Shown one piece after another: positions 19,058-39,713 of a DNA stretch of 64,000 bases. Position 1 is the stretch's first letter, and every line of letters begins with the position of its first letter. Both the position numbers and the translations under genes were made by a program. Source of the DNA: Candidatus Altiarchaeota archaeon (GTDB taxonomy: Archaea > Altiarchaeota > Altiarchaeia > IMC4 > SCGC-AAA252-I15); contig JAZDNF010000006.1 in NCBI GenBank assembly GCA_043800255.1, positions 3,901-67,900 of the forward strand, read 5' to 3'. The notes beneath the pieces were generated by a model. That model was not told where the DNA came from, did no database searches, and saw only the letters and a program-made list of their open reading frames with translations.

Positions 19058-19099
19058 TTGAGTTCTTGGGGTAGATGGTGATTTTGAAATTCCAGCTCT

Positions 19100-22753: not shown

Positions 22754-22762
22754 GATTTAGAG

Positions 22763-24633: not shown

Positions 24634-25863
24634 ATGGCCAAGGATCAGACTAGAATAGTGTTTGTCTTAACTGTCTTCGTTATGAGCGTCTTATATTCCG
24701 CATCTGCGAAGTCCCTCGTCGAGTGGGATACTGACGCCAGAGAGAGGTACAATAATGCGAAGAACGAGTATCTGCGGGTGAGTAATGCTTACAGGGAGGC
24801 GATGCAGGACTGGATCACGGCGAAGAACGCCTACCAGCAGAACAAGAGCAAGGGGAACACGGAGAACGCCCTTGAAAGTTGGAAGAACCACCTGCTTGCG
24901 GCAGACCAGAGGCTTGTGGCCTACCTCGAGGCTCTGAAAGCTTACGCCGAAGGCGAGCCGACTTTGGATGAAACAGAAAGGCAGGAGATAATCTCTGAAG
25001 TGGAGGGTTACATCAACTGGCTGGAGCAGAAGCAGCCTGAGATCGAGGCTGCGACCACAAGGCAGGAGCTGCAGGACATCACAACGACTGTCAGAGAGGA
25101 ATGGAATAGTATAAAACCTGCAACCAGGAGGATAATCGGGCAGATGATGAACGCGAAAGTCTTATGGGTTATAAACAAGGCGGAGAACGTTTCAGCAAAG
25201 GCTGAGGAAGCGATAGACAAGCTCGACGCGGCTGGGGAGGACACAACCGAGCTGGAGTCGCTGCTTGCAGACTTCAACGCGAAATTGGACCTGGCCAGGG
25301 AGAAGCATGATGCCGCCAGCGCAAAGTACGCTGAAAGCAGAAATGCTGGAGAAGTGGACAGCCTGCTTAGAGAGGCTGACGCTCTGGTTAGGGAGGCTAA
25401 CGGTTACCTGAAGGAAGCGTACACGACGCTGAAGCAGCTGGTGAAGGAGATACGGGAGTCCGCTTCAGGGAAGGTGAGAGTCCGCGGCACGGGGAAACTG
25501 TGGGCTGCTGGAGACGGGGAGGCCACAATCTCAGGAAATGCCACAGTCGAGTTGACCGGGGAGGACGGAGAGCTTGAGCTGCACGACAAAGGAGGGGACA
25601 TGATTGAGACGGTGACCGGCTTCGGAGACAGGAGAGTGACCGGGCAGATAATAAGGTACAGTGGATCCGGCACAGCAACAGTCTCGGGGAGCGACATCGT
25701 CGTCAAACTGGAAGCCTCGAATGTCGACCTGTACGCTGAAGGCACAGGCAAAGCCAAACTGAAGGGAACTGGAACGTATAAGACGTGCGGGACTGGCGCG
25801 TGCGCTGAAGGCGCGTGGACTTCCGCCGGCGTTGACGTGACCATCTCAGCGAACGTAGGATGA
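24634..25863 (+). CDS. Secreted coiled-coil protein with a Gly/Thr-rich beta C-terminal region (409 aa).
   Basis: N-terminal signal/anchor IVFVLTVFVMSVLYSASA, a long helical region, then GTGK.../GSGTATVSG repeats. Confidence 0.6.
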   Translation: MAKDQTRIVFVLTVFVMSVLYSASAKSLVEWDTDARERYNNAKNEYLRVSNAYREAMQDWITAKNAYQQNKSKGNTENALESWKNHLLAADQRLVAYLEALKAYAEGEPTLDETERQEIISEVEGYINWLEQKQPEIEAATTRQELQDITTTVREEWNSIKPATRRIIGQMMNAKVLWVINKAENVSAKAEEAIDKLDAAGEDTTELESLLADFNAKLDLAREKHDAASAKYAESRNAGEVDSLLREADALVREANGYLKEAYTTLKQLVKEIRESASGKVRVRGTGKLWAAGDGEATISGNATVELTGEDGELELHDKGGDMIETVTGFGDRRVTGQIIRYSGSGTATVSGSDIVVKLEASNVDLYAEGTGKAKLKGTGTYKTCGTGACAEGAWTSAGVDVTISANVG

Positions 25864-26240
25864 AAAACAGGATACTGATAATTGGGATAATAGCGCTGCT
25901 TGTCTTGTCCAGCCCAGGATGCCTCAGAAAATTGAGAGGCGGACAGAGAGCCACCACAATCGTGCCAACGACCATAGCAGAGACTCAACAGGCTGCCCCA
26001 ACAGACGAGGAAGCCTCCGAAGCAGAGCCGATAGCTGACATAACCTCTGAAGAATCCAAGCTGACGCCTCCGGACGTTGACTTAGACTTAGACCTCGAGC
26101 CAACAACGACTGTTGAAACCACCATCCCAGAGGTAATGTCAGACGAAGACCTGGCAGAACTTGATACCATCATAAACAACATCAACACCATAGAAACAGA
26201 ACTGTACGCAGGCGACCTGGACCTGGACATCAGCCTGTGA
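25860..26240 (+). CDS. Small acidic secreted lipoprotein-like protein (126 aa).
   Basis: Signal peptide MKNRILIIGIIALLVLSSPGC, then a D/E/T-rich region. 4-nt overlap with the upstream gene. Confidence 0.5.
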   Translation: MKNRILIIGIIALLVLSSPGCLRKLRGGQRATTIVPTTIAETQQAAPTDEEASEAEPIADITSEESKLTPPDVDLDLDLEPTTTVETTIPEVMSDEDLAELDTIINNINTIETELYAGDLDLDISL

Positions 26241-26351
26241 GCCCCCATTAGTTCCCTTCTTAGGGGACTAGGGCGAGCCACAGGCCGCACCAAGATAACG
26301 GGGGATTGAGAGCAAGGGAATCAGTAAGAAGTCTGGGATTGTCTCTTGCAG

Positions 26352-26374
26352 TCATTGCTCGTCTTTGTGATATA
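26352..26374. repeat. Direct repeat copy 1 (tcattgctcgtctttgtgatata).
   Basis: 22/23 identity to 27269-27291. The match extends ~12 nt further (tctcttgcag versus tctctggcag) across a 6-nt indel. Confidence 0.6.
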
Positions 26375-26432
26375 ACCTTAAAAAAGAGGATATGATAGTA
26401 TTCCTAGATCTATTTGAGGCATAGTGTTGGTT
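26352..26432 (-). pseudogene. Truncated remnant of a relE-like toxin gene 3' end.
   Basis: The minus strand encodes ...NTIISSFLRLYHKDEQ*, bounded by an upstream in-frame stop. This matches the C-terminus of the intact RelE at 27269-27517 (...KIIFLDLYHKDEQ*). The terminal 23 nt are a 22/23 match. Confidence 0.4.
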
Positions 26433-26460
26433 TTATTTTAGCATTTCGATATTTGATGTA

Positions 26461-26955
26461 ATGTCAAACGCTGGCCCCGTTATTCTGTATTTGGATAATA
26501 CCGAGCTTTACGGCTCCTTGAAGAAAGCGATAAAACACTATCTAACTGGAGGTACTGGAGGTGTACGATCTAAGTTTCTGGATTATCTAAAGAAGTTGCA
26601 GGATTCGGGGGGTGTCGTTGTATTAACTTCTGAGCTCGCTGAATTTGAAGCTATTAGACGACTGCTCACGGATTTCCCAGAATTGACGTTTAACAAGGCT
26701 CTTGAAGCTTGGATGGAGTTGAGGGGAAGGTATGATATTCGTTCAATAGATCTCCGAGACTGTAAGACAATAAATCTTGACCTTAAATTCTTCCAGAAAA
26801 CAGGATTCGACTATAAAGATGGGATGCATTATTCAGTGGCAAAAAAATATGGGGCTTTTATTGTGACTGGAGATGGGAAATTTGGAGAAACGGCAGAGCA
26901 GGTATACAAGGGTAAAGTACTAAGAAGAGGGGACGTATATCAAAAATTCAAGTAA
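26461..26955 (+). CDS. PIN-domain protein (VapC-like nuclease fold), 164 aa.
   Basis: The N-terminal Asp sits in ILYLDNTELYG. C-terminal AFIVTGDGKF resembles the PIN TxDxxF motif. AT-rich codon usage. Confidence 0.55.
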   Translation: MSNAGPVILYLDNTELYGSLKKAIKHYLTGGTGGVRSKFLDYLKKLQDSGGVVVLTSELAEFEAIRRLLTDFPELTFNKALEAWMELRGRYDIRSIDLRDCKTINLDLKFFQKTGFDYKDGMHYSVAKKYGAFIVTGDGKFGETAEQVYKGKVLRRGDVYQKFK

Positions 26956-27268
26956 TTATTTAGATTTCTTAATGATTTTAGCTAAATCTTTTGCTATGGT
27001 ATCTAGATTAACCCTGTTAGACACTCCTTTTACCTCAGTTACAGGAATCCGAAAACCATTAACTTTCAGGGTTTTTTTCACCGCATGGATTTGCATAATA
27101 GCTCACCCGTATACAATATAATAGAGGATATAGAACTTAAAAAAGGGCCATTTTTGTTTATTCTACTCAAACGTGCATTTACTTCTTAAAACAGCCTTCT
27201 AGGCAGTATACAGTTAGTTTCTGTTTTTCTGGGCAGCGTTTTTCCATGTTTTTCTCTGGCAGGATCAC

Positions 27269-27291
27269 TCATTGCTCGTCTTTGTGGTATA
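27269..27291. repeat. Direct repeat copy 2 (tcattgctcgtctttgtggtata), which is the 3' end of the relE coding sequence.
   Basis: See copy 1. The two copies flank the PIN gene 26461-26955, about 915 bp apart. Confidence 0.6.
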
Positions 27292-27517
27292 GGTCTAGGA
27301 AGATTATTTTGTCCTCTTTTTTGAGGTGCATGTATGACAGGCGGAATGGCGGGATTTTGACTTCCCTGCTGTCCTTTCGGACGTAGCGCATCGGTTTTCC
27401 GACTTCAGGATTGCTGACTATCTTCTTAATCTGCTTTTTGACTCGTTCTTTCAGGTCTCGGTTTTTGATTCTCTTTATTATGTTCTCAAAATGCGGTTCG
27501 TATGCGACAGTTACCAT
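27269..27517 (-). CDS. relE: RelE/ParE-family type II toxin.
   Basis: 82 aa. The C-terminal ...RLSYMHLKKEDKIIFLDLYHKDEQ pattern is typical of RelE/StbE toxins. 7-nt overlap with the upstream antitoxin gene. Confidence 0.7.
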   Translation of the reverse strand: MVTVAYEPHFENIIKRIKNRDLKERVKKQIKKIVSNPEVGKPMRYVRKDSREVKIPPFRLSYMHLKKEDKIIFLDLYHKDEQ

Positions 27518-27780
27518 GTCTCAAGTTCAGCCAGGAATTTGTCGCCGCTAGTCTCCTTGAACTTGCCCTTCTCGTATCTTTCCAACGCCTCCACAGTCCT
27601 TTTCGCGAACTTCAAGTCTTCCATGAAAGTCCCACCCAACTCCCGGACCGGTTTGAGTATGAACTGGCGGTCTTTTTTGATGATGACGAATTTATCGCCC
27701 ACATTGAACCCCTCCCGCATGTCCTGCGGTATCACAACCTGACCCTTGGAACTTAATTTGGTAACGTCCACATTAATCAT
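27511..27780 (-). CDS. AbrB/MazE/SpoVT-family antitoxin.
   Basis: 89 aa. ...LSSKGQVVIPQDMREGFNVGDKFVII is a swapped-hairpin AbrB/MazE motif. Immediately upstream of and overlapping relE. Confidence 0.7.
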   Translation of the reverse strand: MINVDVTKLSSKGQVVIPQDMREGFNVGDKFVIIKKDRQFILKPVRELGGTFMEDLKFAKRTVEALERYEKGKFKETSGDKFLAELETW

Positions 27781-28096
27781 CTAGATCACCATAATAAGAT
27801 TCGTCTTACCAATATATAAACCAACATTCTGGGCAAAAAACCCACCAATAGTCGCGGAAGCGGGGAGTTGCCCCTTCAGTTTTCCGTTGGAGAAGCAGAG
27901 TTTCCTGCGTCGCCCGCTCTCCCGCACATCCAAGTGTAGTGTAATACAGTAAAAACATCACAAACAACGGAAAAATAGGGGGCTGTGCGAGCAATATGGA
28001 CAGGTAAATGCATAGTTGGCCCATATTTTATTGCGGGTAAAGCCGGTAGACCAATATACCTTGGAGTGAACGTCTCCAGTGTCTGCCGGTACTGTG

Positions 28097-28960
28097 TCAC
28101 TGTTTCTGTCCTCTTTTCCTGACTATTCTTTTCAGTTTTTCTGGAATTTGAAGGTAGTTTTCAGATGTTATTACGCTTCTTCCGCTCTCGTACTCTAGTT
28201 TTTTTCTTGCGTCGCCGGCTATGGTGCCCCCTCGTCTGGCCACTGTTTTGTTTTGGATAAATCCTCTTGCATCCCTTTTACGGGCTATCTCCGTCGTTGC
28301 CGCCTCTCCGAGCATGGTGAATATCAGCTCCAGGTCGGTCATATGGTCCCGCAGGTTCTCGCGCTTTAGGCCCTTGTATTTCAGGTATTGACTGGGGGTC
28401 ATGCCGAAGGTGGCGTCCGATATCTCAGCCGTCAATATGGCGAATTCTGTGTCTTGTTTAACTCCCCTCTTGTTCCATTCTCCGGTAAGTTCGTCTCTTA
28501 CGGCGATACCTCTCACTCTTTTCTCAATCCAGTCCTCAGAGTAGCCTTTTGCTTGGTAAATCCCTCGCATCCGTCCCATAGCCAGTTCAGGATTCCCTAT
28601 CTCCTGCACTCTCTCGTAGCCGACTTTCGCAAGCCATCTCTTGAAAGGTTCTGCTTTCTTGGAGGGGATAGATTGTATTATCCTGAACATAGACTCTGTG
28701 TTGGCGCAGTCTGTTAGGTATTTTTTGCCGTCTGGTGCGGACAGTTTCAGTTGTACCCAAATTGGGGACAACTGAAGTTGTGCGAATTCCCTCTCTTTGA
28801 CCTTCCCCCAATACTGGCGGGGTGTCGGGCTGTCAGTCAAAACCTGGACGACGTCCACGACCGAGAAATACCATTCCTTATCATGCCAGACCCTACGAAT
28901 CTGTTTGCCCTGAAAAACGACCAACGAATTATCCTCATCCATACCAACCACAAACAACAA
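28097..28960 (-). CDS. Bro-N domain protein (phage antirepressor / DinD-like family).
   Basis: 287 aa. N-terminal VVFQGKQIRRVWHDKEWYFSVVDVVQVLTDS fits the Bro-N pattern. Island context. Confidence 0.65.
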   Translation of the reverse strand: MLFVVGMDEDNSLVVFQGKQIRRVWHDKEWYFSVVDVVQVLTDSPTPRQYWGKVKEREFAQLQLSPIWVQLKLSAPDGKKYLTDCANTESMFRIIQSIPSKKAEPFKRWLAKVGYERVQEIGNPELAMGRMRGIYQAKGYSEDWIEKRVRGIAVRDELTGEWNKRGVKQDTEFAILTAEISDATFGMTPSQYLKYKGLKRENLRDHMTDLELIFTMLGEAATTEIARKRDARGFIQNKTVARRGGTIAGDARKKLEYESGRSVITSENYLQIPEKLKRIVRKRGQKQ

Positions 28961-29014
28961 TACATATTAACTCTAGAAAGCCCTTAAAAACACCGCGAGC
29001 AACGGAAAAATAGA

Positions 29015-29713
29015 TCATGCTCCCACCTCTACGATTTTAGCCCCCGTAATCCTCGAAAGTTGGTTCGCAAGAGTTTTATTCTTCACGTAAATCATTGGTG
29101 GGTACAGTTCTTCTGAGGATACTCCATCTATTGAAGATGGCCTACAAACAAATAGTAATGTGTCAATGTCTGAATTTCTGAATAGAGTCTTTGAAACGAT
29201 ATCCTTGTTTGAGATAAAAGAATAAAACCTTTTTAGTGTGGCTATTATGCAATCATAAAAGATGACACCCCATAATTGGTTATCCGAATCTTTTCCCCTC
29301 CGTTTAGAGTTGATATGTTTGATGCACCTATTTATTTTAGAGAGGGCTTCTTTTTCGTTTTTTGGCAGGTTCAATGGTAACGACGAACTATGAACGTTCC
29401 TCTTAAGAGACGTATTGATTGAAGTAATCTCAACATCTACTCCTTTGTCTTTAATTTCATAATCCGGGACTTTATTAGACTTGTTCTCTTGAATCCGAGT
29501 TAAATCTCCTAATGGACTTAGTACCTTCTTAACATAGCGTTCGAGTTGCGGCGTAACCACATTTGTTCTGATAAAATCTTGATACGAGATAATACCATTG
29601 CTCGACACATTCTTACCATCCATACAGGGCCCATAGTATATTTTCATCAGGCCTTCAATATCCTGTGGAGGGTCATAACTCGCCTTATCCATGATTCTCC
29701 TCAACAATCCCAA
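29015..29713 (-). CDS. Hypothetical protein (232 aa), island-encoded.
   Basis: Complete AT-rich ORF with no motif recognised. Confidence 0.45.
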   Translation of the reverse strand: MGLLRRIMDKASYDPPQDIEGLMKIYYGPCMDGKNVSSNGIISYQDFIRTNVVTPQLERYVKKVLSPLGDLTRIQENKSNKVPDYEIKDKGVDVEITSINTSLKRNVHSSSLPLNLPKNEKEALSKINRCIKHINSKRRGKDSDNQLWGVIFYDCIIATLKRFYSFISNKDIVSKTLFRNSDIDTLLFVCRPSSIDGVSSEELYPPMIYVKNKTLANQLSRITGAKIVEVGA

Positions 29714-29771
29714 TCTCTCCGTCTAACTTCTTTTCGTACCAATCAAGAGGAAATATGTGGAACATAATGTT

Positions 29772-30659
29772 TTATGTACTATCTGTTTGTTTTTGAGAAT
29801 TGATTTCATCGATCAACATTTTTTCGAATGAGAGGTGAAACTCTAATGTTCGGGAAAATGTTTTGTCCATCCAATCTAACGTTTTTACAGAAGTATACTC
29901 ATCACCTTTTCTCAGAAAAGGTTTATTCGGAATCCTATGACACCATGTTTTTTCAGCAGGATTGCCAGTAATTGAAAATATCGTTTCTGAATGAGAATGA
30001 AAAGACATTCGTTTTCTTCCATGAGCCACATAACGTCTAAGCTCATTTAGTTTGGGTGTACTGAGTATCTCGATTATGTCACCATACTCTTTTTGCGTCC
30101 GTGAATATTTTTGTAGTTCTTTTTCATAGTCCGTGACTGGCTTCTGAGGCGTAAAAATCCAGTTATAAGATTCTACCAGAAGGTACTCTTCGAAGGAGGG
30201 AGCTATCTGCGTTGTCCCTTTGTTTTTTAGTTGCTTAAATAGATTACCAAAACCAAATTCAGGGTCGTACTTCCTGCGGAGGGTTATCCTAAATAATTTT
30301 GCTAATGAATCTAAACTGCCGCGTAGGGATAAAATAAAAGCATCAAGTTCAAACTCCAGAAGAACGTGGAACTTGGATTTCTCAGTTATTTTTTCATCTG
30401 AAGAATATGCCATGGAGTAAACTGAATGCATCTTCTGAAAAAGAAAATAGTGAAAACATGCACTTTCAAGAGAATGTGAAAGGCCAGATATTAGTTCCTC
30501 GAATAGGTGTTTATCGTCTGCAAGGATGCTCTTCTCAAGTTCTTTATCTAAATGTTTACTTCTTTCGAAAAAATCACCGAATTTTCCATTAAAAAAAGAT
30601 AAAAACTCTTTCTCAGAAAAATCAAGATTCAATCCATTATCCTGTTCCATCTTCGACAA
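29772..30659 (-). CDS. Hypothetical protein (295 aa). It lies directly downstream of, and overlaps by 23 nt, the Type IIG R-M gene.
   Basis: Complete ORF. The overlap suggests translational coupling with the upstream R-M gene. Confidence 0.45.
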   Translation of the reverse strand: MSKMEQDNGLNLDFSEKEFLSFFNGKFGDFFERSKHLDKELEKSILADDKHLFEELISGLSHSLESACFHYFLFQKMHSVYSMAYSSDEKITEKSKFHVLLEFELDAFILSLRGSLDSLAKLFRITLRRKYDPEFGFGNLFKQLKNKGTTQIAPSFEEYLLVESYNWIFTPQKPVTDYEKELQKYSRTQKEYGDIIEILSTPKLNELRRYVAHGRKRMSFHSHSETIFSITGNPAEKTWCHRIPNKPFLRKGDEYTSVKTLDWMDKTFSRTLEFHLSFEKMLIDEINSQKQTDST

Positions 30660-33606
30660 TTTTTATTTCGTCTTCCGTTAGGCCATATAGCTTATACACG
30701 AGCGAGTTTATCTCATTATCTGTGGCCTCAATCTGCCGCTCCAAAACAGACCTCTCCTGAGGAGTTTTAACACCAGCCAAATGATTATGCAAACCCAACA
30801 TACGAGAAACCAAAGAAACAACATCATCATGCTGTTTCTTCTCAAGAGGATTTGAAAAGTCTATTCGTCTTATTGAGATTTTTGATATGCTATTCCAGAA
30901 ATATTCGTATATCCCTCCACTTTTTAATTTTCCTATGCTCTTGAATCTGTATGTTAAAAGTTTTGAATTCAACAAACCTAGTAAGTATAGCAGATCTTCT
31001 GGTTGATTGTTTTCGAATAATACAGTCGTATCTGTTAAGCCTATAAATTCATTAGCATAATCTATTGCAAAACGATTATATTTTGCAAGATATGGGCACA
31101 TTATTTTTTTTCTGTCATAATGTTCTTTATGGAGGGGCCATGTATACTTCCACCATTCACAGTCCCCACGTTTGTATGCTGCTCGTGCTTTTAATTCACT
31201 TGAATTTTCAAGGAGATGTTTTTGAACAGCATTGGGAAGATTATCAAATTTAATAACATCTTCTAAATATAACAAATAGTCTCCTCGATCTTTAATGAAG
31301 AATCGTTGGATATCTGAGTTTGATGCCCGGTTATAATAGTTTCCCTTTTTTACACCCCAACTAATTATCTTATCTGACGTTATTTTTCCAAAAACATTAT
31401 TCCTACCCGTTTGCATACCTTGACCAATAATAAGGATTTGCCCTAATTTCTCTCCCTCGTTATCGATTTTCTCGTTCAATAATGCGTTGTCCTCTGAAAC
31501 GAAAGACCATGGCTCTGAAGTTAAGTTAGATTGTCCTATTCTTATCTTTTGAAAAATAGAAAAATTCTGAATTTGTCTACTTAAATTTGATGTTAGTAGT
31601 TCATCTCCTAACAATTTGTATACATCGATCTTTCCATTTTTCGAGCTTGATTGTAGGTTGATTATACAGGTTGTAATACCTACTCGGGGGAATATAGGGT
31701 AATTCTGAAAATCAATTATCTCAGAAATTCTTGAATTTTCAAGGATATAACCCCTCAATTTATCTGCTTTGTATGCTTCAAGGAATGCTCTTGAAACAAT
31801 AAAGCTGATATAATCTTGAGACAGCTGTAGTGCTTTTCCAATAAAGTAGAAAAGTATATCCGTTTTATCATTGTAGATTTCAGGATAACCCTTTTTTATG
31901 GCTTTCAATCTAGGGTCTTTTTTACCCCACGTATCATCAATGTTCAAATACGGCGGATTCCCTATCACTGCATCAAACTTGAAGGGGAATTCTTTTTTCC
32001 AGTTGAATGTGTTTATCCGGAGCGTTTCTTCTTCGGTGAATATTTTGGTCTGGCCTGTGTAGAAGTCGGGGCCGATGAGGCTGTTCCCGCATTTGATGTT
32101 ATTGTCCAGGTCGGGCAGTACGCGGCCTCCGAGGCGTTTCTGGGGTTCCCTGTGCTCGTCCTCCAAGACTTTCAAAAGTAGATTAAGCTTTGCGACCTCG
32201 ACGGCCTGCTCGTCAATATCAACACCGTATATGTTGTTCAAGAGTATCCGTTTCTTCTCGCCCAATGTCAGATACCATTGTCCGCCTTTGCCCTGATAGA
32301 CGGCATCCTTGTTTTTGCCGGGATCGTGACTTACGTACCAGTCCCTATGATAATCTAAAAGCTTCTGATACGCTCCAATCAAAAACGAACCTGAACCGCA
32401 CGCTGGGTCGAGAACTTTCAGTTTCTCAACCTGCTTGGGAGATTTGCCCTCAATAAGCCTTCCGACAGTATTTTGAACGATATAGTCTACGATGTATTTT
32501 GGCGTGTAATAGACGCCGCCGGCCTTCTTCACCTCTGGCTTTTCCTCGACTTTGGCGCGATGGCCTTCGGTAAGGCGTATTACTTTCCCTAGGAACTGCT
32601 CGTAGACGTTGCCGAGGATGTCAGCCCCGATGACTGAGAACTCATAAGGGCAATTCGGGTAATACAGGTTCTTGATCATGTCCCTGAAGACTTTATCATC
32701 AATCTTCAGGTTCGGGCAGACGTAATCCGGGAAAGACGTCCGTCCCTTTTCCTCTTTGAAATAGAATATCCCAGAATTGTATTTCTCATCAGCTTTTTCG
32801 AAAAGCCTCAGCAAATGGGTGTAAATGTCCTCCTTCTCCGATATCTCCTGAAGCTGTTCGTATGGTTCTATCCCCCGATCCTCGCATATTCTCAAGAATA
32901 TTATCCGGTCTATGGTCTTCTGGACTGCATAATTTATCTCACGAACAGAGTATTTTGGATTCCTCAATGCGATGTTCTTTGCCAGCTCATCCCTCCACCT
33001 CTCAATCTCCTTCAGGAATTCGTCATCCACCTCGGATGTGCCTTTTTTGCCCTTGACAGATTCAGCATACTGGTCGAACAAGCCGTGCTCTATCGAAGTC
33101 TTGGCGAAAATATTTGCTATCTCATCCCAACGGGTCGCATACTCGTCATAGCGTACGTACAATATCCTCCCAACACTGGCAGAGTCGTTTGGCAAGGGTT
33201 TCTTACGGCAATCATATACTGCAAACTCTTCGAAATCGGTTAGAACAGCGAGAGGCAGTTTCGCGCTCCAGGAATATCTCCGAATCTGATATGCCGGGCT
33301 GACATCGCCCTTGATGTTCACAGAAGGCTTTTTAGTCTCGAGGAAAAATTTTCGTGTCCCGCCGATACGGAAAGAATAATCCGGAGCCTTGATGTTCTGA
33401 CCTATTCTAATCGCATCCTCGTGGATCACATCCTTGTAGGCTTCAGCGATTCCCTTAACATTACGAACATCCCAACCCAATTCCTCAAAAAAGGGATTGA
33501 TGAATTCCTCCCTCAATTGAGTTTCATTATAAGCAGCGCTCAAATATGATTTCTTGTTCCACTCAAATCTCTCAACCAACTCAACAATCTTCTCCGGCGC
33601 AGCCAT
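30637..33606 (-). CDS. Type IIG restriction-modification enzyme: fused endonuclease, gamma-class N6-adenine DNA methyltransferase and target-recognition domain (Eco57I/MmeI-like).
   Basis: 989 aa. The N-terminus has a restriction-enzyme-like motif (...ETQLREEFINPFFEELGWDV...). MTase motif I is LDPACGSGSFL and motif IV is VIGNPPYLNI. A long C-terminal TRD-like region follows. Confidence 0.85.
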   Translation of the reverse strand: MAAPEKIVELVERFEWNKKSYLSAAYNETQLREEFINPFFEELGWDVRNVKGIAEAYKDVIHEDAIRIGQNIKAPDYSFRIGGTRKFFLETKKPSVNIKGDVSPAYQIRRYSWSAKLPLAVLTDFEEFAVYDCRKKPLPNDSASVGRILYVRYDEYATRWDEIANIFAKTSIEHGLFDQYAESVKGKKGTSEVDDEFLKEIERWRDELAKNIALRNPKYSVREINYAVQKTIDRIIFLRICEDRGIEPYEQLQEISEKEDIYTHLLRLFEKADEKYNSGIFYFKEEKGRTSFPDYVCPNLKIDDKVFRDMIKNLYYPNCPYEFSVIGADILGNVYEQFLGKVIRLTEGHRAKVEEKPEVKKAGGVYYTPKYIVDYIVQNTVGRLIEGKSPKQVEKLKVLDPACGSGSFLIGAYQKLLDYHRDWYVSHDPGKNKDAVYQGKGGQWYLTLGEKKRILLNNIYGVDIDEQAVEVAKLNLLLKVLEDEHREPQKRLGGRVLPDLDNNIKCGNSLIGPDFYTGQTKIFTEEETLRINTFNWKKEFPFKFDAVIGNPPYLNIDDTWGKKDPRLKAIKKGYPEIYNDKTDILFYFIGKALQLSQDYISFIVSRAFLEAYKADKLRGYILENSRISEIIDFQNYPIFPRVGITTCIINLQSSSKNGKIDVYKLLGDELLTSNLSRQIQNFSIFQKIRIGQSNLTSEPWSFVSEDNALLNEKIDNEGEKLGQILIIGQGMQTGRNNVFGKITSDKIISWGVKKGNYYNRASNSDIQRFFIKDRGDYLLYLEDVIKFDNLPNAVQKHLLENSSELKARAAYKRGDCEWWKYTWPLHKEHYDRKKIMCPYLAKYNRFAIDYANEFIGLTDTTVLFENNQPEDLLYLLGLLNSKLLTYRFKSIGKLKSGGIYEYFWNSISKISIRRIDFSNPLEKKQHDDVVSLVSRMLGLHNHLAGVKTPQERSVLERQIEATDNEINSLVYKLYGLTEDEIKIVEDGTG

Positions 33607-33681
33607 CTCTACAAGTTATTATCGAATAACAAGATTAAATCGTTAATAGTCCTGATTTTCCAATCTACTCCGTTTCCTATT

Positions 33682-34899
33682 TTATTCGTCGTCTTTGATT
33701 TTGCTGAGGGTTAAGCGTGTGGTTTCTTCGGGGGTGGCGTATTTTCTGAGGATTTCCTCCAGTTCCTGGGGGAATTCGTGCTTTTCAAGTTTTCCGGCCA
33801 GTCCCATTATGTTTAGGGTGCTTACGTCATCCCAGAAGCCGTCTTTTTTCAGTATCTCCTCTAGTTTCTGCCTTTCCTTTGTGTTCGCGGCGGGAAATTT
33901 GAGAGCCTCTTTCACTGCAACGCGCACCCGCTTATCGGAGCCGTAGATGTACTCTACCCCCTCCTTTTTAGCGTATGCTACTAAGGCTTCAGCAAGCTGA
34001 GCATACTCCTCCTCAAACCAGGCCTTGAACTCCTGCTCCCTGACCTTCAGTTCGGCGTACTTGTTGGCTAAGACGACCCCCTCCTCAGCCATGTATTTGT
34101 TTAACGGCAGCTGCCGGGTTTTAACTTGATGTTTCTTGATTTTGCAATACTCTTGGAAGGCACACCAGGCACATAGACCGGATTCTATGGCGGGGAAATT
34201 GTCGTCGGTGGTCGCCTGTTCTATGCTTTGTATGATACCTAAAAATTCTGTTTTAAGGTCTTCCAGGTGCTGGCTCGTCCGTTTGGATCTGAGTTCCTTG
34301 TCGAATACTAGGTAATGCCATACTAAGTCAACTTCCTCTACATCGTCCCACATCTGGCGAATGCCTATCTCGTAGAGGGCTAGTTGTTGATCCCTGTTCT
34401 TCTTATCCTGGGTTGGAAGATGTTGGCTTGTCTTGTAATCGTGTATTTCATAAATTCCATCACCGACAGTATCCAGGCGGTCTATGTAGCCGATAAAATT
34501 ATACTGGTTATCGCCTAGCAGGTCTACGGTAACCATCATCTCAGTTTCGAGGGTCTTCCCTTTCTCAAAGGGTTTATAGCGGTTATAGTAGTCCACCAGA
34601 CACTTTTCGCCGACAATCCGGTAATGCTCTTGTGTCAAACCCTCCTTGTTGACGACGACGTCAGGGTTTATGTATCTCACCCAGGAGTCGTTATAACCTC
34701 CTAAAAGTTCGTCAACAGAAGCGATTTTCCCGTGATTGCGATCTATATAGAACTTCTCCAAAGCCTCATGAACCCGCTTGCCCATGAAAGCCTCAATACC
34801 CTCAAAAGCCTCGACGTCCAGCTTATCGATATACTGAAACTTAAATGCCAGAGGACAATTCTCGAAACATTGTAGACGAGAATACGAGTACCTCATCAT
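33682..34899 (-). CDS. PD-(D/E)XK RecB-family / Cas4-like nuclease with a Cys cluster.
   Basis: 405 aa. The N-terminal YSYSRLQCFENCPLAFKFQYI matches the Cas4/RecB-nuclease N-terminal motif. The later CAWCAFQEYC provides three more Cys, giving a 4Cys Fe-S-like arrangement. Confidence 0.7.
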   Translation of the reverse strand: MMRYSYSRLQCFENCPLAFKFQYIDKLDVEAFEGIEAFMGKRVHEALEKFYIDRNHGKIASVDELLGGYNDSWVRYINPDVVVNKEGLTQEHYRIVGEKCLVDYYNRYKPFEKGKTLETEMMVTVDLLGDNQYNFIGYIDRLDTVGDGIYEIHDYKTSQHLPTQDKKNRDQQLALYEIGIRQMWDDVEEVDLVWHYLVFDKELRSKRTSQHLEDLKTEFLGIIQSIEQATTDDNFPAIESGLCAWCAFQEYCKIKKHQVKTRQLPLNKYMAEEGVVLANKYAELKVREQEFKAWFEEEYAQLAEALVAYAKKEGVEYIYGSDKRVRVAVKEALKFPAANTKERQKLEEILKKDGFWDDVSTLNIMGLAGKLEKHEFPQELEEILRKYATPEETTRLTLSKIKDDE

Positions 34900-34980
34900 A
34901 TAGAATAGTGGATTATTTAGTTAAAGGTGGGGGGAGCATTGGAAAAATAGTCTAACCAATACAAGCCCCTATGTTTAGAT

Positions 34981-35100
34981 TAGTTGATGCATTGTGAACA
35001 GGTGATGCATAGTGTATCAACTAAGCCCTAGTTAGGATATCAATCAGGTGATATTGGTTCCTGTCTTAGGGAGTGATAAGAATCAGCTACTTCACAGGCG
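34981..35100. repeat. ~110-bp element A. It has a perfect 8-bp inverted repeat (tagttgat...atcaacta, 27-nt loop) followed by the conserved 27-mer agtgatAagaatcagctactTcacAggc.
   Basis: Homologous with indels to element B at 37681-37790. The 27-mer is a 24/27 match. Intergenic. Confidence 0.6.
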
Positions 35101-35169
35101 CTTGGAATGGGAGAAGTGGGCTTGGGAGCGTGATGGTGTGCCTGCTCGCGTACCCGTCCAATGAATCAT

Positions 35170-36276
35170 CTATTTGTTTTCAGCTACTTTTATCCAGCGG
35201 TCCAGGTAGTCAATTTTTATGACTTGTTGAAGTTTTTTGTTTTTGACCAGCACTTGTTTTAAATCTCCGATCAGGTCTGCTTTTTTATTGTATTCCTTAA
35301 CCTCTTTTGAGCGTGCGGCAAGGTAATGGTTTATCTGGGCTTCTCTTTCGTCTTGATTATTGCAGTATCCGCAGTCGCATTTCATAAGCTCTGGTGCATT
35401 CTTTTTTATGTAGTCAAGTTCTGAGCCTGAAAACCTATTCTTCAATCCTGGGACGTAGAAGCGCGAGTATTGTCTCTGGCCGAAGCCGGGAGATGCGCGT
35501 CTTAGTCTGTCTCCTGAGTCTGCACCGTGAACAATGGCGTGTATGTTGACGTTTGGTAATAAGAGGTCGAAGAAACTGCTATATGTTGAGATTATCGGCT
35601 TACCTGTCTGGGATAACCCGTTTAGTATGTCTTTGTATCCGCTTAGGTATTCCGTTGATGCGGAGTAGACATCGAATTCTATTGCGGAAAAGCAGAAGCC
35701 GTCGGCGTCTGATTTGGCGTAGGCATTGCATATTTGGGCTGCTGCTCTTTTATTGATGAGTAAGTCTATGGTCAAAGCCAAGCCAGCATATACTTTTTTC
35801 TTAGGATATAGTTCTTTTGCGTCTTTTATGAAATTGAGGTTATGCTGTTGTGCTGGGCAGTTTTCTTCGTCTATGAATCCATAAGGTGCTATGAGAAATT
35901 CCGGGTCCACTGTTTTAGTTACCTCATCTAGGGGGTCTTCGGATAGTGCCTCGTTAATCCTGTTCTCCTGGAAGGTAAGGAATTTTCTAACAAAATCTTT
36001 TCGTCGTTTCTTATCTGATGGTATCTGCCGTATTTCATCCTCCACATCCAGCTTTGACACGTACCTAGCATGTGACCTCTTGTCCGAAACAAGATCGTAT
36101 AAGTGGGGGTCTACGACGAAAGACTTGCCGGTTTTTAGAAGAATCTGGGAGAAAGCATTGTTGTAATACTCCAGGTTTGGGCTGTCAATTACGTAGCCGT
36201 CAAAGTGATCCTTTACTTTTTCTGTGAACTTTCCTTCTTGAGCATTGTATCTGACGTAAAACTTCATTTTTGCCAC
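35170..36276 (-). CDS. TGT-fold (tRNA-guanine transglycosylase / DpdA-like) protein lacking a PUA domain, 368 aa.
   Basis: ...IVHGADSGDRLRRASPGFGQ...ELMKCDCGYCNNQDEREAQINHYL. The CxCxxC...H spacing resembles the TGT/ArcTGT/DpdA zinc site, and DS..RRG resembles the TGT catalytic segment. This is pattern-level similarity only. Confidence 0.45.
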   Translation of the reverse strand: MAKMKFYVRYNAQEGKFTEKVKDHFDGYVIDSPNLEYYNNAFSQILLKTGKSFVVDPHLYDLVSDKRSHARYVSKLDVEDEIRQIPSDKKRRKDFVRKFLTFQENRINEALSEDPLDEVTKTVDPEFLIAPYGFIDEENCPAQQHNLNFIKDAKELYPKKKVYAGLALTIDLLINKRAAAQICNAYAKSDADGFCFSAIEFDVYSASTEYLSGYKDILNGLSQTGKPIISTYSSFFDLLLPNVNIHAIVHGADSGDRLRRASPGFGQRQYSRFYVPGLKNRFSGSELDYIKKNAPELMKCDCGYCNNQDEREAQINHYLAARSKEVKEYNKKADLIGDLKQVLVKNKKLQQVIKIDYLDRWIKVAENK

Positions 36277-36640
36277 GCTTCAAGGGTGACGATAGCCTTG
36301 ACTTGCTAATTACTTTACATTCGCCTTTTTTTATACTCAATATTCCGACTCCAAGCTCCCTGAAGGTGCCTACGTCGAGTCTGGCAGCCAGATTATGGGG
36401 TATTGCAACGTAATTGTAATGGCAGTATGATGTGTTCAAAGCTGCCTGCCTAAGTGCCCTACGCCAGTCTGAGACCTTAACTTCAACGGAGGTTAAACGC
36501 CCCGTAGACTTCCGTTTGAAGACCAGATCCATGCTTTTCCGGTAGCTTTTCTCCGGATGGGTTCTGACCTCCTCAAATGGCTCAAAACCGTCATCGAATG
36601 TGTCCAGAATAGGACCATAGAGGGAAAGCTCAGAGGCCAT
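36200..36640 (-). CDS. Small PD-(D/E)XK nuclease-fold protein (Hjc-like), 146 aa.
   Basis: ...SMDLVFKRKSTGRLTSVEVKVSD... resembles the Hjc D-x(n)-E-V-K catalytic motif (VDLVA...IEVKVTK). Its 3' end overlaps the TGT-like gene by ~77 nt. Confidence 0.5.
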   Translation of the reverse strand: MASELSLYGPILDTFDDGFEPFEEVRTHPEKSYRKSMDLVFKRKSTGRLTSVEVKVSDWRRALRQAALNTSYCHYNYVAIPHNLAARLDVGTFRELGVGILSIKKGECKVISKSRLSSPLKRGKNEVLRQIQCSRRKVHRKSKGSL

Positions 36641-36673
36641 TATCTTTAATTAATTGAGCCCCTAATTATTAAT

Positions 36674-37219
36674 ATGACCGTACAGAAGAATTTGAAGCCA
36701 ATCTTACTATTGTTCCTGCTCTCGAAGCTGAGCGAAAAGGGTGAGCGTAAGGTAGATAATCTGCGTTCCATGAAGCTCCTATTTCTGATACAAAAAGAGG
36801 GTGAAAAGCAGGTAGAAAAAGGATTCAACTTCGTACCATACAAATACGGCCCATATAGTGAAGACTACTTCGATACCTCAATATACCTGTCAGAGAAAGG
36901 TTTAATCGACGTGGAGACCGATGTTTCAGGAGACATCAAAGCAGTTAAAATCAAACCCGAGGGGAGTGAAAAAGTCGCAACCCTTCAAACGGCATATTCA
37001 GACATAGCATCGAGCGTCTCAAAGATAGTATCCGAATACGCAAACCTAAGCACCGACCTTCTGCTATTGTACATCTACTCGAAATATGCGGACTTCACCA
37101 TACGTTCCGAGATAAAGGACAAGATACTATCCATAGCAAAGGCCAACTTTAGCATATTACAGTCTAAGGCAAAACAATTCAACTTTTCCGAAGGAGAACT
37201 CAATTTAGTGGGGATTTAA
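36674..37219 (+). CDS. Panacea-domain (DUF4065 / SocA-like antitoxin) protein, 181 aa.
   Basis: ...MKLLFLIQKEG...FVPYKYGPYSEDYFD... fits the Panacea pattern. Directly precedes a PIN gene. Confidence 0.5.
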   Translation: MTVQKNLKPILLLFLLSKLSEKGERKVDNLRSMKLLFLIQKEGEKQVEKGFNFVPYKYGPYSEDYFDTSIYLSEKGLIDVETDVSGDIKAVKIKPEGSEKVATLQTAYSDIASSVSKIVSEYANLSTDLLLLYIYSKYADFTIRSEIKDKILSIAKANFSILQSKAKQFNFSEGELNLVGI

Positions 37220-37654
37220 GTGCTACGCATAATCGCGGATACAAACATCATACTATCAGGGTTATTCTTCGATAAAAACCCCGAGAAACTGTTACTGCTA
37301 GCCATAAACGGCGACCTAAAACTCATAATCCCCGAACTTGTCATAACAGAGGTAAACGAAAAAATAGAGGGAAAATTCTCAAAACAAGAAAACCTGGGGG
37401 CAGCAAGGGACTTTTGGTTCGTACTCCAAAAAGCATTCCGCGAAACAAAAGAGGACATACTCTCCGATAAGACTACTCCCATAGACTGTCCTGACTCCGA
37501 TGACACTAAGATTCTGGAATATGCAACCAAGATTAAGCCAGATTACGTCATATCAGGAAACCAACACGTACTCGACATCAAAGACCCTCCCTGTCAGATA
37601 ACCAAACTAAGAGCCTTTTTAGAAAAAGAATTTCCAGGAATCCTGGAGGATTAA
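37220..37654 (+). CDS. PIN-domain protein (VapC-like), 144 aa.
   Basis: LRIIADTNIILSG contains the first Asp. ITEVNEK and DSDDTKILEYA supply further acidic residues. The C-terminal VISGNQHVLD is a degenerate TxD motif. Confidence 0.55.
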   Translation: MLRIIADTNIILSGLFFDKNPEKLLLLAINGDLKLIIPELVITEVNEKIEGKFSKQENLGAARDFWFVLQKAFRETKEDILSDKTTPIDCPDSDDTKILEYATKIKPDYVISGNQHVLDIKDPPCQITKLRAFLEKEFPGILED

Positions 37655-37680
37655 TCCTTCCAGAGACCTAAAAAAATGCA

Positions 37681-37790
37681 CGTTGATAACATGGTGTGTT
37701 AGCCAATACAAGGGGTTATCAAAATCAGCAGAGACAAAGGGAATTTGGTGTTTGAGTCAAGCAGTGATGAGAATCAGCTACTCCACGGCT
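37681..37790. repeat. ~110-bp element B. It has a perfect 8-bp inverted repeat (ttgataac...gttatcaa, 23-nt loop) followed by the 27-mer agtgatGagaatcagctactCcacGgc.
   Basis: Pairs with element A (34981-35100). Together they delimit a ~2.7-kb cassette (35.1-37.75 kb). Element B ends ~8 nt from the stop of the bactofilin gene at 37798. Confidence 0.6.
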
Positions 37791-37797
37791 ATGGTCG

Positions 37798-38484
37798 TTA
37801 CTTGAGTCTGTTGGTGAGGGTTTGTCCGGGGCCTGCTTTTCTCTGGTTTTCTCTGAATCTGATGCGGCCCTGAAGTGAGAGGATGTCCTTGTAAGCGTAG
37901 ACTTCATCTGTTGCAGAGACTATGTCGTCTTTGGCGCGGATTCCGCCGCTCTTGGAGATGATAGGCCCTCTGGCCCGCATCACGCCGGATTTGGACTCTA
38001 TGTCCCCGTTGGCTGTGATGCTCCCATCCCAGGCGATGAGACTGTCGCCTGATGTTATGGAACCTCCGGCTGCTATGTCGCCCTTGAATGAGTTTATGGC
38101 CCCGCTGTGAGAGTATATGTCTCCGCCGGCCCGTATCGGGCCATTGTCAGCGTTTATGTCCCTCTCAGCCCGTATGCTGCCGACCGCGTCTATGCCGCCG
38201 TCAGCTTCTATCCTGCTCTTCGCCCTGAAATCAGGATTCGATATTATGAGCCTGCCTCCGGTCTTCAGGCGCTCAATCTGGGAGCAGGACTCGGCCAGGA
38301 TGAAATTCTCATCCCCGCCCCTGACGGCAACCTGATTTCCCACCAGGACTGTGTAATCAATGCCTTCGAGAGTGACCTTCCCATTGGAAACAGGGCATTG
38401 CCTGCCTCCGACCGTTAACTCAGCCAGAGGTTTGATGTCCTCAAGCCCGCCCCTCTCTCCCGCACAGTAGACCTTCTGGACCAT
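37798..38484 (-). CDS. Bactofilin-like beta-helical protein (second paralog), 228 aa.
   Basis: ...GGIDAVGSIRAERDINADNGPIRAGGDIYSHSGAINSFKGDIAAGGSITSGDSLIAWDGSITANGDIESKSGVMRARGPII, a bactofilin-type winding repeat. Confidence 0.7.
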   Translation of the reverse strand: MVQKVYCAGERGGLEDIKPLAELTVGGRQCPVSNGKVTLEGIDYTVLVGNQVAVRGGDENFILAESCSQIERLKTGGRLIISNPDFRAKSRIEADGGIDAVGSIRAERDINADNGPIRAGGDIYSHSGAINSFKGDIAAGGSITSGDSLIAWDGSITANGDIESKSGVMRARGPIISKSGGIRAKDDIVSATDEVYAYKDILSLQGRIRFRENQRKAGPGQTLTNRLK

Positions 38485-38570: not shown

Positions 38571-39713
38571 ATGCTTTCTAGGGTTTTGGTTGCGGGTTTG
38601 AACTGCCGTCCTGTGGCAGTCTCAGCCAAAAAGTTCATACCAGAAGTTTATGTCGTAGACTACTTCGGCGACGTTGACCTGAAACGGGCTGCCGACGGCG
38701 TCTACTCCATAGGCAAAGAGTACTCGCTGGACAGGCTGCTCAAGCGAACGAAGAAGGTCATAGGGAGGGTGAAACCTGAGGGAGTGCTGCTGACCTCAGA
38801 ATTAGGATGCAACCCAGACACCGTCAGAGAGGTGGGATACTCCTGCAAGATAATTGGGAACGGCTTCGAGCAGGTCAACTCAGTCAGAGAGTGGAAAGGC
38901 TTCTTCCACACGCTTGACAAACTGGGCATAAAACATCCGAAGACGATTCTGGTGGACAAGATAATGAACGTCGAATGGGCGTGCAAGACTATAGGGTTCC
39001 CGCTGGTGACGAAGCCATTGCACGGCTCCTCAGGACAGGGAGTCAGGCTCATCCACTCCCTGAAGGAGGCCCTTACAGAGTTCGACAAATACAAGAGGAT
39101 ACTCATCCAAGAGTACGTCAGAGGCGTGAACGCCAGCGTCTCCGTGATTTCAACAGGAGCTGATGCGACTGCAGTCTCCTTGAACGAGCAGCTCCTAGGC
39201 AAGAATGAATTCGGACAGGAGAACCAGTTCGGATACTGCGGGAACATAGTGCCATTGGAAAGCAGACTCGAGAGGAAGGCCAGAGAAGACGCCGAGACAA
39301 TATGCAGGGAGTTCAAGCTGGTCGGGAGCGTCGGAATCGACATGGTCCTGGCAGACCAGCCGTATGTGATAGAAGTGAACCCCAGATTCCACGACACGCT
39401 CGAATGCATCGAAAGGGCATACGACATTAACCTCGTCAAAGCCCACATTGAAGCAATCGGCGGGATCCTGCCAACGGTAGGGAAATCTGGAAAAACCTAC
39501 GCGAAGAGCATACTTTTTGCGGACGGCAGGCTGAAGATAGCAGGCAACCTGGAGAACGTTGAGGGCGCGGCAGACATAATGAGAGAGGGAGCGATCGTCG
39601 AAAGAGGCAACCCGGTGTGCAGCGCCATAGCAGAGGGGAAGGACAGGGACGCAGCGCTTTCAAGCCTGAACGACAAGATAATCACATTAAAAAAATGCTT
39701 CAGAAGGATTTAA
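38571..39713 (+). CDS. ATP-grasp superfamily ligase (archaeal RimK/MfnD/MptN-like).
   Basis: 380 aa. ...PLVTKPLHGSSGQGVRL..., ...LIQEYVRG..., ...IDMVLADQPYVIEVNPRF... are ATP-grasp motifs. Confidence 0.65.
   Translation: MLSRVLVAGLNCRPVAVSAKKFIPEVYVVDYFGDVDLKRAADGVYSIGKEYSLDRLLKRTKKVIGRVKPEGVLLTSELGCNPDTVREVGYSCKIIGNGFEQVNSVREWKGFFHTLDKLGIKHPKTILVDKIMNVEWACKTIGFPLVTKPLHGSSGQGVRLIHSLKEALTEFDKYKRILIQEYVRGVNASVSVISTGADATAVSLNEQLLGKNEFGQENQFGYCGNIVPLESRLERKAREDAETICREFKLVGSVGIDMVLADQPYVIEVNPRFHDTLECIERAYDINLVKAHIEAIGGILPTVGKSGKTYAKSILFADGRLKIAGNLENVEGAADIMREGAIVERGNPVCSAIAEGKDRDAALSSLNDKIITLKKCFRRI

Follow-up and report, generated by a model that had tools for sequence, protein, structure and literature searches.

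Clusters of restriction-modification (R-M), toxin-antitoxin (TA), and other immune genes, known as defense islands, have been described in bacteria and archaea (Makarova et al. 2011/2013; PMC3632139). Several immune systems also build on homologs of tRNA-guanine transglycosylase (TGT) or on 7-deazaguanine. The Dpd 7-deazaguanine R-M system pairs the TGT homolog DpdA with DpdB, DpdC, and DpdD-K (PMC10164549), Dag1 and Dag2 are anti-phage glycosylases that target 7-deazaguanine DNA (bioRxiv 10.1101/2025.10.29.685425), and TGT homologs are carried by CBASS type IV (the TGT-like Cap10) and by the BREX-related BRC systems (PMC12839542). In the PanAT modules, a Panacea/DUF4065 antitoxin is combined with exchangeable toxins (PMC8832971). 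Here, we analyzed a 64-kb stretch (hereafter the window) of contig JAZDNF010000006.1 from a Candidatus Altiarchaeota archaeon. Positions 26321–37780 of the window are a real, horizontally acquired defense/TA island. We give a probability of roughly 0.7 to the reading that this island is a composite of several acquisitions and recombinations, not one integrase-mediated insertion, and that it lies inside a 21.4-kb lineage-specific segment. The island includes a four-gene cassette (35170–37654) that encodes a nuclease-like protein, a TGT-like enzyme, and a Panacea-like/PIN pair. The island and its parts, including open reading frames (ORFs), are as follows.

26321–37780, no strand: low-GC, probably composite defense/addiction island (two-change-point fit, GC 0.421; GC profiles; codon usage)
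26349–26413, no strand: two overlapping ParE 3'-end scars in opposite orientations at the left island edge (direct repeat D8 and inverted repeat I1)
26461–26955, plus strand: solo PIN-like gene, 164 aa (Pfam PIN E 5.7e-4; GC at third codon positions, GC3, 0.39)
27269–27780, minus strand: type II TA pair, ParE/RelE-fold toxin (27269–27517) and MazE/AbrB-type antitoxin (27511–27780)
27876–28960, minus strand: Bro-N protein of 287 aa (28097–28960; Pfam Bro-N E 1.4e-10), preceded by an overlapping 74-aa ORF
28950–31950, minus strand: very-low-GC block (GC 0.33–0.39) with two orphan ORFs (232 aa and 295 aa) and the last 437 codons of the type IIG gene
29015–29713 and 29772–30659, minus strand: orphan ORFs of 232 aa and 295 aa, no family assigned
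30637–33606, minus strand: type IIG R-M enzyme, 989 aa, chimeric (Pfam HSDR_N, N6_Mtase, Eco57I, TaqI_C)
33682–34899, minus strand: solo Cas4-like PD-(D/E)XK exonuclease, 405 aa (Pfam PDDEXK_1 E 4e-29)
35072–35095, plus strand: left 24-nt direct repeat, AGTGATAAGAATCAGCTACTTCAC, the core of a 42-nt repeat at 35054–35095
35170–36276, minus strand: cassette gene 4, predicted TGT-fold zinc enzyme of an unannotated family, 365–368 aa (fold and zinc motif)
36200–36640, minus strand: cassette gene 3, a small nuclease-like protein of 146 aa with a PD-(D/E)XK motif, whose gene overlaps the beginning of the TGT-like gene
36674–37219, plus strand: cassette gene 1, Panacea-like putative antitoxin/regulator, 181 aa (PADLOC PDC-M19A E 1.6e-17)
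37220–37654, plus strand: cassette gene 2, PIN_3 putative toxin, 144 aa (Pfam PIN_3 E 1.3e-12)
37763–37786, plus strand: right 24-nt direct repeat, AGTGATGAGAATCAGCTACTCCAC, at the right island edge and 11 nt before the stop codon of a 228-aa gene

A first-pass annotation of this DNA had described a sharp drop in GC from about 26.25 to 37.7 kb and an AT-rich defense/addiction island of foreign composition. The drop is real, and both composition and gene content show that the label was right. In 500-nt windows, mean GC is 0.422 inside 26250–37790 (sd 0.048, n = 22) and 0.520 outside (sd 0.026, n = 104; Mann-Whitney p = 1.5e-12), and the lowest outside window is still above the mean of the inside windows. 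Maximum-likelihood segmentation with two change points returned a block at 26321–37780 with a GC of 0.42 versus 0.52 elsewhere, its edges within 70 nt of those proposed earlier. Codon usage is atypical as well. GC3 is 0.30–0.57 in island genes versus about 0.59–0.73 in core genes, and the island genes score a lower log-likelihood under core codon usage.

The island brings unrelated defense and TA genes together within 11.5 kb, namely the type IIG R-M gene, the ParE/AbrB-type TA pair, the PIN gene, the PIN_3 gene with its Panacea-like partner, a member of the PADLOC candidate family PDC-S13, and the Cas4-like gene. It resembles described defense islands in that an R-M gene, three TA-type modules, a solo Cas4-like nuclease gene, and a PADLOC candidate cluster within compositionally atypical DNA. 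A further resemblance is that related genomes lack the cluster at the syntenic site, which is unoccupied in 4/4 relatives, though these relatives are distant. Unlike described defense islands, it has no recombinase, tRNA, or terminal repeats, is visibly stratified, and is nested in an orphan cluster between two housekeeping genes that are normally adjacent and operon-like.

At least three GC3 strata make the island a mosaic. The Bro-N gene, the Cas4-like gene, and the N-terminal half of the type IIG gene have a GC3 of 0.55–0.58, the four cassette genes lie at 0.46–0.51, and the PIN gene, the 232-aa and 295-aa ORFs, and the C-terminal half of the type IIG gene lie at 0.30–0.40. Within the type IIG gene, codons 1–552 have a GC3 of 0.58 and codons 553–989 a GC3 of 0.30. 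The step, from 0.64 to 0.36, falls between 50-codon bins 11 and 12, near codon ~550, at the NPPY motif. The AT-rich DNA does not end with the C-terminal half but continues across both orphan ORFs downstream. The first of these ORFs overlaps the stop codon of the R-M gene.

MmeI/Eco57I-type type IIG enzymes change specificity by swapping their target-recognition domains. The island enzyme shares their architecture, as an HSDR_N nuclease (aa 26–136), a gamma-class NPPY N6-methylase (Eco57I/N6_Mtase, aa 328–661), and a TaqI_C specificity domain (aa 809–910) are fused in one 989-aa protein, the C-terminal half of which is of other origin. Both PD..ExK and NPPY are readable in the translation, and the PADLOC model REase_MTase_IIG matches aa 5–739 with an E value of 6e-211. 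The simplest reading of the sequence is that two divergent type IIG genes recombined at NPPY, swapping the specificity half and the downstream DNA. In keeping with this, relatives on plasmids number 110 for the N-terminal half (identity up to 41.5%) and 5, all weak, for the C-terminal half. Unlike the known swaps, the exchanged segment would begin in the methylase core and extend through two further ORFs.

The left island edge carries traces of a second kind. The direct repeat D8 (24/26 nt) and the inverted repeat I1 (39 nt, 82%) both match the 3' end of the intact ParE gene at 27266–27327, and the two scars translate as '..FLRLYHKDEQ*' and 'LKKEDMIVFLDL'. About 900 nt, including the solo PIN gene, separate them from the intact ParE gene.

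The right part of the island is occupied by the cassette, flanked by the two 24-nt repeat copies. These are 22/24 identical, and the two matches in the window compare with 0 expected in 100 shuffles. The nuclease/TGT-like pair and the Panacea/PIN pair had been listed earlier as separate items, but they form one conserved four-gene cassette. We gathered loci with relatives of the TGT-like protein from the encoding contigs, GTDB genomes, and JGI metagenomes, the metagenome scan adding three loci. Every locus with enough sequence besides the window (L006/L007, L008, L009, L010, L011, and L012) has the same four genes in the same order and divergent layout, with the PIN_3 and 181-aa genes on one strand and the 146-aa and TGT-like genes on the other. 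Each cassette gene is 38–88% identical in amino acid sequence to its window counterpart across these loci.

The cassette recurs in five other archaeal contexts, and its GC is below that of its own flank in L006, L008, L009, and L010. The flanks differ: a type IIG gene, a tRNA, and an rRNA operon in L006/L007; a type I S subunit and GrpE-DnaK-DnaJ in L008; MtrA and pilin-like genes in L009; and 23S rRNA on one side and an Eco57I-type methylase on the other in L010. An R-M gene adjoins the cassette in 3/3 other contexts with enough flank (L006/L007, L008, and L010), and in the window the type IIG gene is one gene away. The cassettes of L009 and the window share 81% nucleotide identity over 2315 nt. 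L009 also holds, at 3245–3382, a remnant of the 3' end of a Cas4-like gene (79% nucleotide identity over 92 nt to window 33692–33783). This remnant is on the PIN_3 side, and the intact Cas4-like gene of the window is on the TGT-like side. The cassette thus travels from one archaeal genome to another as one unit, independently even of a neighbor that accompanies it. As a separate observation, in two other archaeal lineages the R-M-plus-cassette cluster lies directly beside the rRNA operon and tRNA genes (L006 1–5566 and L010 3332–6322). Ribosomal RNA operons and tRNA genes are classic integration hot spots, unlike the window site.

The TGT-like protein belongs to a family without annotation. 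Neither Pfam, NCBIfam, nor PDB sequences gave a match, 10 distant relatives have no Pfam TGT match, and PADLOC returned only a marginal, unrelated Cas11 match (E 0.004). It has only four close homologs among 5.8 billion proteins. A hidden Markov model (HMM) scan of 1.84 billion representatives at E <= 0.001 enlarged the family to 637 clusters at 50% identity, mostly of about 350–470 aa. An AlphaFold 2 (AF2) model from a five-sequence alignment (predicted local distance difference test, pLDDT, 74.7; predicted template modeling score, pTM, 0.78) is a TIM barrel closest to TGT, DpdA, and ArcTGT. The CxCxxC...H zinc motif (C297, C299, C302, and H314) is conserved in 39–40 of 40 family members and aligns with the same Cys/His pattern of ArcTGT (1iq8), in a profile match that is sub-significant alone (E 1.1). 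Conserved acids D53 and D/E253 sit at barrel-strand ends in the model and are at most candidate counterparts of the catalytic Asp residues known for TGT. The earlier name "TGT-like" therefore has no TGT HMM match behind it, but the fold and the zinc motif support it. We also considered a viral origin of this gene and rejected it, as no relatives were found in IMG/VR, GenBank phages, or plasmids and there was no significant fold match in BFVD.

The 146-aa protein has D38, E53, and K55 (D...ExK) invariant in 7 orthologs. No family in any library searched and no PDB sequence matched it, and a fused homolog gives a weak match to REase_MTES_1575 (E 0.12). The first-pass name "Hjc-like" did not survive a profile comparison, in which hhalign matched the 7-sequence profile to P. 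furiosus Hjc (1GEF) with a probability of 0.35% (E 0.17); the D..ExK motif is present nonetheless.

For the remaining two genes, which had been called Panacea/PIN, the PIN_3 assignment was confirmed and the Panacea assignment stays below threshold. The 181-aa protein scores 13.3 bits against Pfam SocA_Panacea (PF13274), where the cut-off is 25.7 (E 0.16), and its orthologs reach E values of 0.02 and 0.013. Profile coverage is near full in three lineages, all of them sub-threshold. In PADLOC, it also matches a type I S-subunit C-terminus (E 1.3e-14) and a DarG linker (E 2.8e-7).

More distant relatives indicate which parts of the cassette belong together. In L057 (E 3e-26) and L056 (E 4e-9), the HMM of the 146-aa protein matches the ORF that directly precedes the TGT-like gene. 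It also matches the N-terminal 130 residues of the 557-/560-aa TGT-like proteins P0136 and P0139 (E 2e-21 and 4e-26), which are nuclease-like/TGT-like gene fusions, P0136 being from Bathyarchaeia. In L057 and L058/L060, the HMM of the 181-aa protein picks out a gene two positions ahead of the TGT-like one (E 1e-17 to 1e-19), and a non-PIN gene follows it there. These linkages and fusions point to a conserved core of Panacea-like protein, putative PD-(D/E)XK nuclease, and TGT-fold enzyme, with an exchangeable fourth gene that is PIN_3 here. As in PanAT, the unit has two genes with the putative antitoxin first, and the partner varies; the gene after the 181-aa one is PIN_3 in the window, and L057 and L058 have unrelated genes of 149 aa and 181 aa in its place. 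This exchange of the fourth gene matches the behavior described for Panacea antitoxins (PMC8832971). Unlike ordinary PanAT, the cassette gene is consistently linked to the nuclease/TGT-like pair, and its Panacea match in Pfam is sub-threshold. At L057 7463–8266, the distant cassette (Panacea-like, 149-aa, nuclease-like, and TGT-like genes) is entirely co-directional and adjoins an IS240-family DDE transposase and a urease operon.

The cassette differs from the described systems with TGT homologs in several respects. Among the scanned island and flank genes, we found no DpdB ParB-like ATPase, no DpdC, no helicases, and no preQ0-synthesis genes. Unlike DpdA, the TGT-like protein has no HMM-detectable similarity to DpdA/TGT, and the pair consists of two core proteins that are sometimes fused. 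CD-NTase, QueC-like Cap9, PglZ, HerA, and STAND partners, which would recall CBASS type IV or BRC, are likewise missing from the cassette. With type IV restriction and Dag1/Dag2, the cassette shares a putative reader-plus-nuclease architecture, present as one fused polypeptide in Bathyarchaeia. A base-flipping or base-exchanging fold could recognize modified guanines. Unlike Dag1/Dag2, the predicted fold is a TGT TIM barrel and not one of the glycosylase folds of that study. The combination of nuclease, TGT-like, and Panacea-like genes was not found in the literature searched, which does not prove it undescribed.

We next consider the DNA around the island, where related genomes define a longer synteny break.

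17149–38570, no strand: full synteny break relative to four Altiarchaeota relatives, between RibD_C (16519–17148) and ATP-grasp (38571–39713)
17151–26240, no strand: region A, an orphan cluster with host-like GC (GC3 0.56–0.67, close to core); its genes encode proteins of 416 aa and 219 aa (shared N-terminus), 252 aa, 193 aa (beta-solenoid, the first "bactofilin"), 771 aa (sigma70_r4-type helix-turn-helix, HTH), 583 aa, 409 aa (secreted), and 126 aa (lipoprotein-like)
37798–38484, minus strand: orphan beta-solenoid-like protein, 228 aa (the second "bactofilin"), host-like GC, paralog of 19785–20366

In 4/4 relatives (L001, L003, L004, and L005), the RibD_C and ATP-grasp genes are 7–51 bp apart, in the order riboflavin genes, RibD_C, ATP-grasp, (SSF), GluRS, L7Ae, S28e, L24e, NDK, and S19e. 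The window keeps this order downstream of ATP-grasp (SSF, GluRS, L7Ae, S28e, L24e, NDK, and S19e). Since the two genes are adjacent in the relatives but end and begin at 17148 and 38571 in the window, the break measures 21.4 kb. This is about twice the size of the island in the first-pass annotation. Both "bactofilin" genes fall within the break, and so does the low-GC island. The comparison with related genomes suggested at that stage thus finds the island absent from the site in all four, but within a longer break and with no empty site. These are the closest genomes available, with 46–50% identity in the ATP-grasp protein and 57% at most in any flanking protein compared; at 58–76%, the four are closer to one another than to the window genome.

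The two supposed bactofilins are true paralogs (BLASTP 34% identity, E 3e-17), as had been proposed. We rejected their assignment to the bactofilins (PF04519), as neither Pfam nor NCBIfam gave a match even at E <= 10. The best matches are weak ones to the FapA beta-solenoid (E 0.002 and 0.09), and the 228-aa protein has no homolog among 5.8 billion proteins. The paralogs do lie on either side of the island, but only 37798–38484 abuts it, 19785–20366 being 6 kb to the left. The idea that the island split, or landed beside, a bactofilin operon is not demonstrable, as both loci are inside the 21.4-kb break. Pfam recognized in region A the sigma70_r4 HTH, weak sub-cut-off matches to HAAS (409-aa gene) and FapA (193-aa gene), and nothing else. 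We tried region A as a provirus and rejected this, with 0 PHROG matches in the six proteins tested. Its junction with RibD_C is 2 bp, and its junctions are without repeats.

The earlier statement that the window has no integrase, transposase, or tRNA held for the ORFs tested. The domain scan took in the ORFs of the island and its flanks without exception and, between 7.9 and 63.3 kb, all non-overlapping ORFs of at least 144 aa, leaving out a giant ORF at 2–7957 and a 151-aa ORF at 63419–63874. None of the ORFs scanned matched a Pfam integrase, transposase, or resolvase family (Phage_integrase, rve, DDE, resolvase, and HUH), so no recombinase gene of an integrative island was seen. No tRNA or tmRNA gene is present in the 64-kb window. 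At gathering score the window has no Rfam match, and 16500–39000 has none even at E <= 1, tRNA fragments included. No significant repeat connects the outer island edges or the junctions of the 21.4-kb segment. A tRNA/tmRNA attachment site with terminal direct repeats is accordingly not seen, and flanking repeats occur only around the internal cassette.

Of the cargo named earlier, ParE/RelE with its MazE/AbrB-type partner, Bro-N, type IIG, Cas4-like, and PIN_3 stood, and PIN at 26461–26955 and Panacea are weak or sub-threshold. The former scores 20.9 bits, where the curated Pfam cut-off is 23.6. The ParE/RelE toxin (ParE_toxin E 7.7e-8) and MazE/AbrB-type antitoxin (MazE_antitoxin E 4.6e-7) genes overlap by 7 nt. 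The Bro-N protein is a full-length match to the PADLOC candidate PDC-S13 (E 2.4e-119) and has 30 homologs in viral contigs at 39–66% identity. Neither orphan ORF was assigned a family by Pfam, NCBIfam, PADLOC, or PHROGs, and the 295-aa ORF has no viral relative. The Cas4-like protein has a CX2CX5C cluster and a helical C-terminal extension. It scores 35 against TIGR00372 cas4 (E 9e-9), below the cut-off of 65, and matches PHROG exonuclease families (best E 7e-27), its viral relatives being distant. We call it solo because no other cas-family match was found among the ORFs scanned and no CRISPR-like tandem array was seen.

Other small features were seen in this part of the island. An AT-rich motif ending CAACGGAAAAATAG is found at 27950–27978, 28985–29013, and 34934–34950 (CATTGG in the third copy). 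Two copies precede the start codons of the Bro-N and Cas4-like genes by ~35 nt, and the other is inside the 74-aa ORF; the motif is possibly a shared promoter element. An uncalled 46-codon ORF at 26962–27102 on the minus strand (MQIHAVKKTLKVNGFRIPVTEV..., read by eye) is convergent with the solo PIN gene and possibly encodes a small, putative antitoxin-like protein.

How, then, was the island assembled? The GC3 strata, the step in the intact type IIG ORF, the ParE edge scars, and the repeat-flanked cassette are the basis for reading it as the product of accretion. The first-pass view of one inserted unit does not accommodate the strata, the chimeric R-M gene, and an independently mobile cassette. 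In its fullest form, this view would make the island a single integrative element, such as a decayed provirus, plasmid, or integrative island whose integrase was lost or lies outside the window. The low-GC block is indeed contiguous with sharp edges, and two of its proteins have viral links, Bro-N through many homologs and the Cas4-like protein through exonuclease PHROGs. Integrated elements typically carry TA modules, and an integrase could sit on the contig beyond the window. However, a single arrival accounts poorly for three GC3 strata and a compositional step in one intact gene, or for a cassette that stands alone in other genomes and whose direct repeat flanks the cassette and not the island. 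Pfam and PHROGs also found no replication, structural, or recombinase gene, and there is no tRNA or tRNA fragment. We therefore regard a single element as unlikely.

Less probable again is that the whole 17149–38570 segment is the unit, either a variable region that arrived together or one lost in the clade of the relatives. The synteny break spans exactly this segment, the four relatives form a clade apart from the window genome, and the paralogs at 19785–20366 and 37798–38484 bracket most of it. Region A and the 228-aa gene, however, are host-like in GC3 and codon usage and the island is not, which implies at least two ages of DNA, and the region A junctions are tight (2 bp to RibD_C) and free of repeats. 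We give very little credence to native DNA under a local mutational or selective bias, or to an assembly or binning chimera. Defense genes are often AT-rich and the source is a metagenome-assembled genome, but codon usage differs along with GC, conserved host-like synteny on both sides within one contig would demand two chimeric joins, and the cassette is found in independent assemblies beside archaeal core genes.

Some points weigh against a composite island with an immune cassette. Gain in this lineage and loss in the ancestor of the relatives are both formally possible, as the relatives are a separate clade, and no available near relative has a true empty site. An integrase or tRNA could lie just beyond the window, the extent of our scans. 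None of the other cassette loci has the flanking direct repeat, and the distant-family contexts are few, with three informative loci. The 146-aa nuclease-like protein matches no PADLOC model, and its single-sequence AF2 model, with a pLDDT of 38, is too poor to use. The defensive role of the cassette is deduced from association and fold.

In the composite reading, which we prefer, homologous or short-repeat recombination would have brought in the modules, using recombinases provided in trans. The modules would be the solo PIN gene, the ParE/AbrB-type TA pair with its edge scars, the virus-related Bro-N gene, the chimeric type IIG gene, the solo Cas4-like gene, and the repeat-flanked cassette. 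Recombination at NPPY would have replaced the methylase/specificity half of the type IIG gene, together with the two orphan ORFs, by AT-rich DNA.

As a defense island it is ordinary, and its cassette holds a plausibly new TGT-fold defense candidate. We can offer only tentatively, and with doubt, the further proposal that the cassette is an undescribed mobile archaeal immune system, a nuclease welded to a TGT-fold enzyme and guarded by a Panacea-like/toxin pair, which acts as a minimal Dpd-like R-M system or in modification-dependent restriction. As an immune module, the cassette might use its TGT-fold enzyme to write, or to recognize and excise, a guanine-derived base of the 7-deazaguanine type in nucleic acid. 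The coupled nuclease would be the effector that executes cleavage, and the Panacea-like/PIN pair may be an addiction or abortive-infection back-up that stabilizes the system. In one version, a minimal Dpd-like system would mark self DNA with 7-deazaguanine drawn from the archaeal archaeosine-precursor (preQ0) pool. In another, deazaguanines in viral DNA would be recognized or excised in modification-dependent restriction, and the fused nuclease/TGT-like form fits this version better. A tRNA-directed toxin would be a third possibility.

Several observations concern the surroundings of the island. In region A, the adjacent 416-aa and 219-aa genes (17151–19057) share their first 23 residues (87% identity), encoded by a 70-nt DNA repeat (18334–18403 and 18990–19059), and the C-terminal end of the 219-aa protein is a weak GXGXG-type solenoid. 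The 771-aa protein (20438–22753, minus strand) has the sigma-70 region-4-type HTH as its sole recognizable domain. In a second synteny break, at 43532–46408, orphan genes of 804 aa and 144 aa (no Pfam) separate GluRS from L7Ae, its neighbor in all four relatives. A response-regulator gene at 53035–54300 on the minus strand has locally low GC (0.457, GC3 0.54) and adjoins a histidine-kinase-type ATPase gene, making it a smaller compositional outlier outside the island. Beside the riboflavin operon is a Cdc6/Orc1 gene (12779–13894, minus strand), as in the relative L004. A replication origin may be nearby, which would make the 21.4-kb insertion origin-proximal. The giant ORF at the left window end (2–7957, minus strand) has at least 2652 codons, runs off the window, and probably encodes a very large surface protein. 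Because this ORF fills the first 7.9 kb, the ORF list shows nothing there above about 135 aa.

With its step in the type IIG gene, its toxin scars, and its nested repeat-flanked cassette, the island offers a clean example of growth without a resident recombinase. The cassette is its valuable part, as archaeal immunity is under-described, with nearly a third of archaeal genomes showing nothing beyond CRISPR and R-M (PMC12988326), and as it defines an unannotated family with a predicted TGT fold. If the cassette does write or read 7-deazaguanine in DNA, it would be the smallest such system known, and it would link the archaeal tRNA archaeosine pathway to genome defense.

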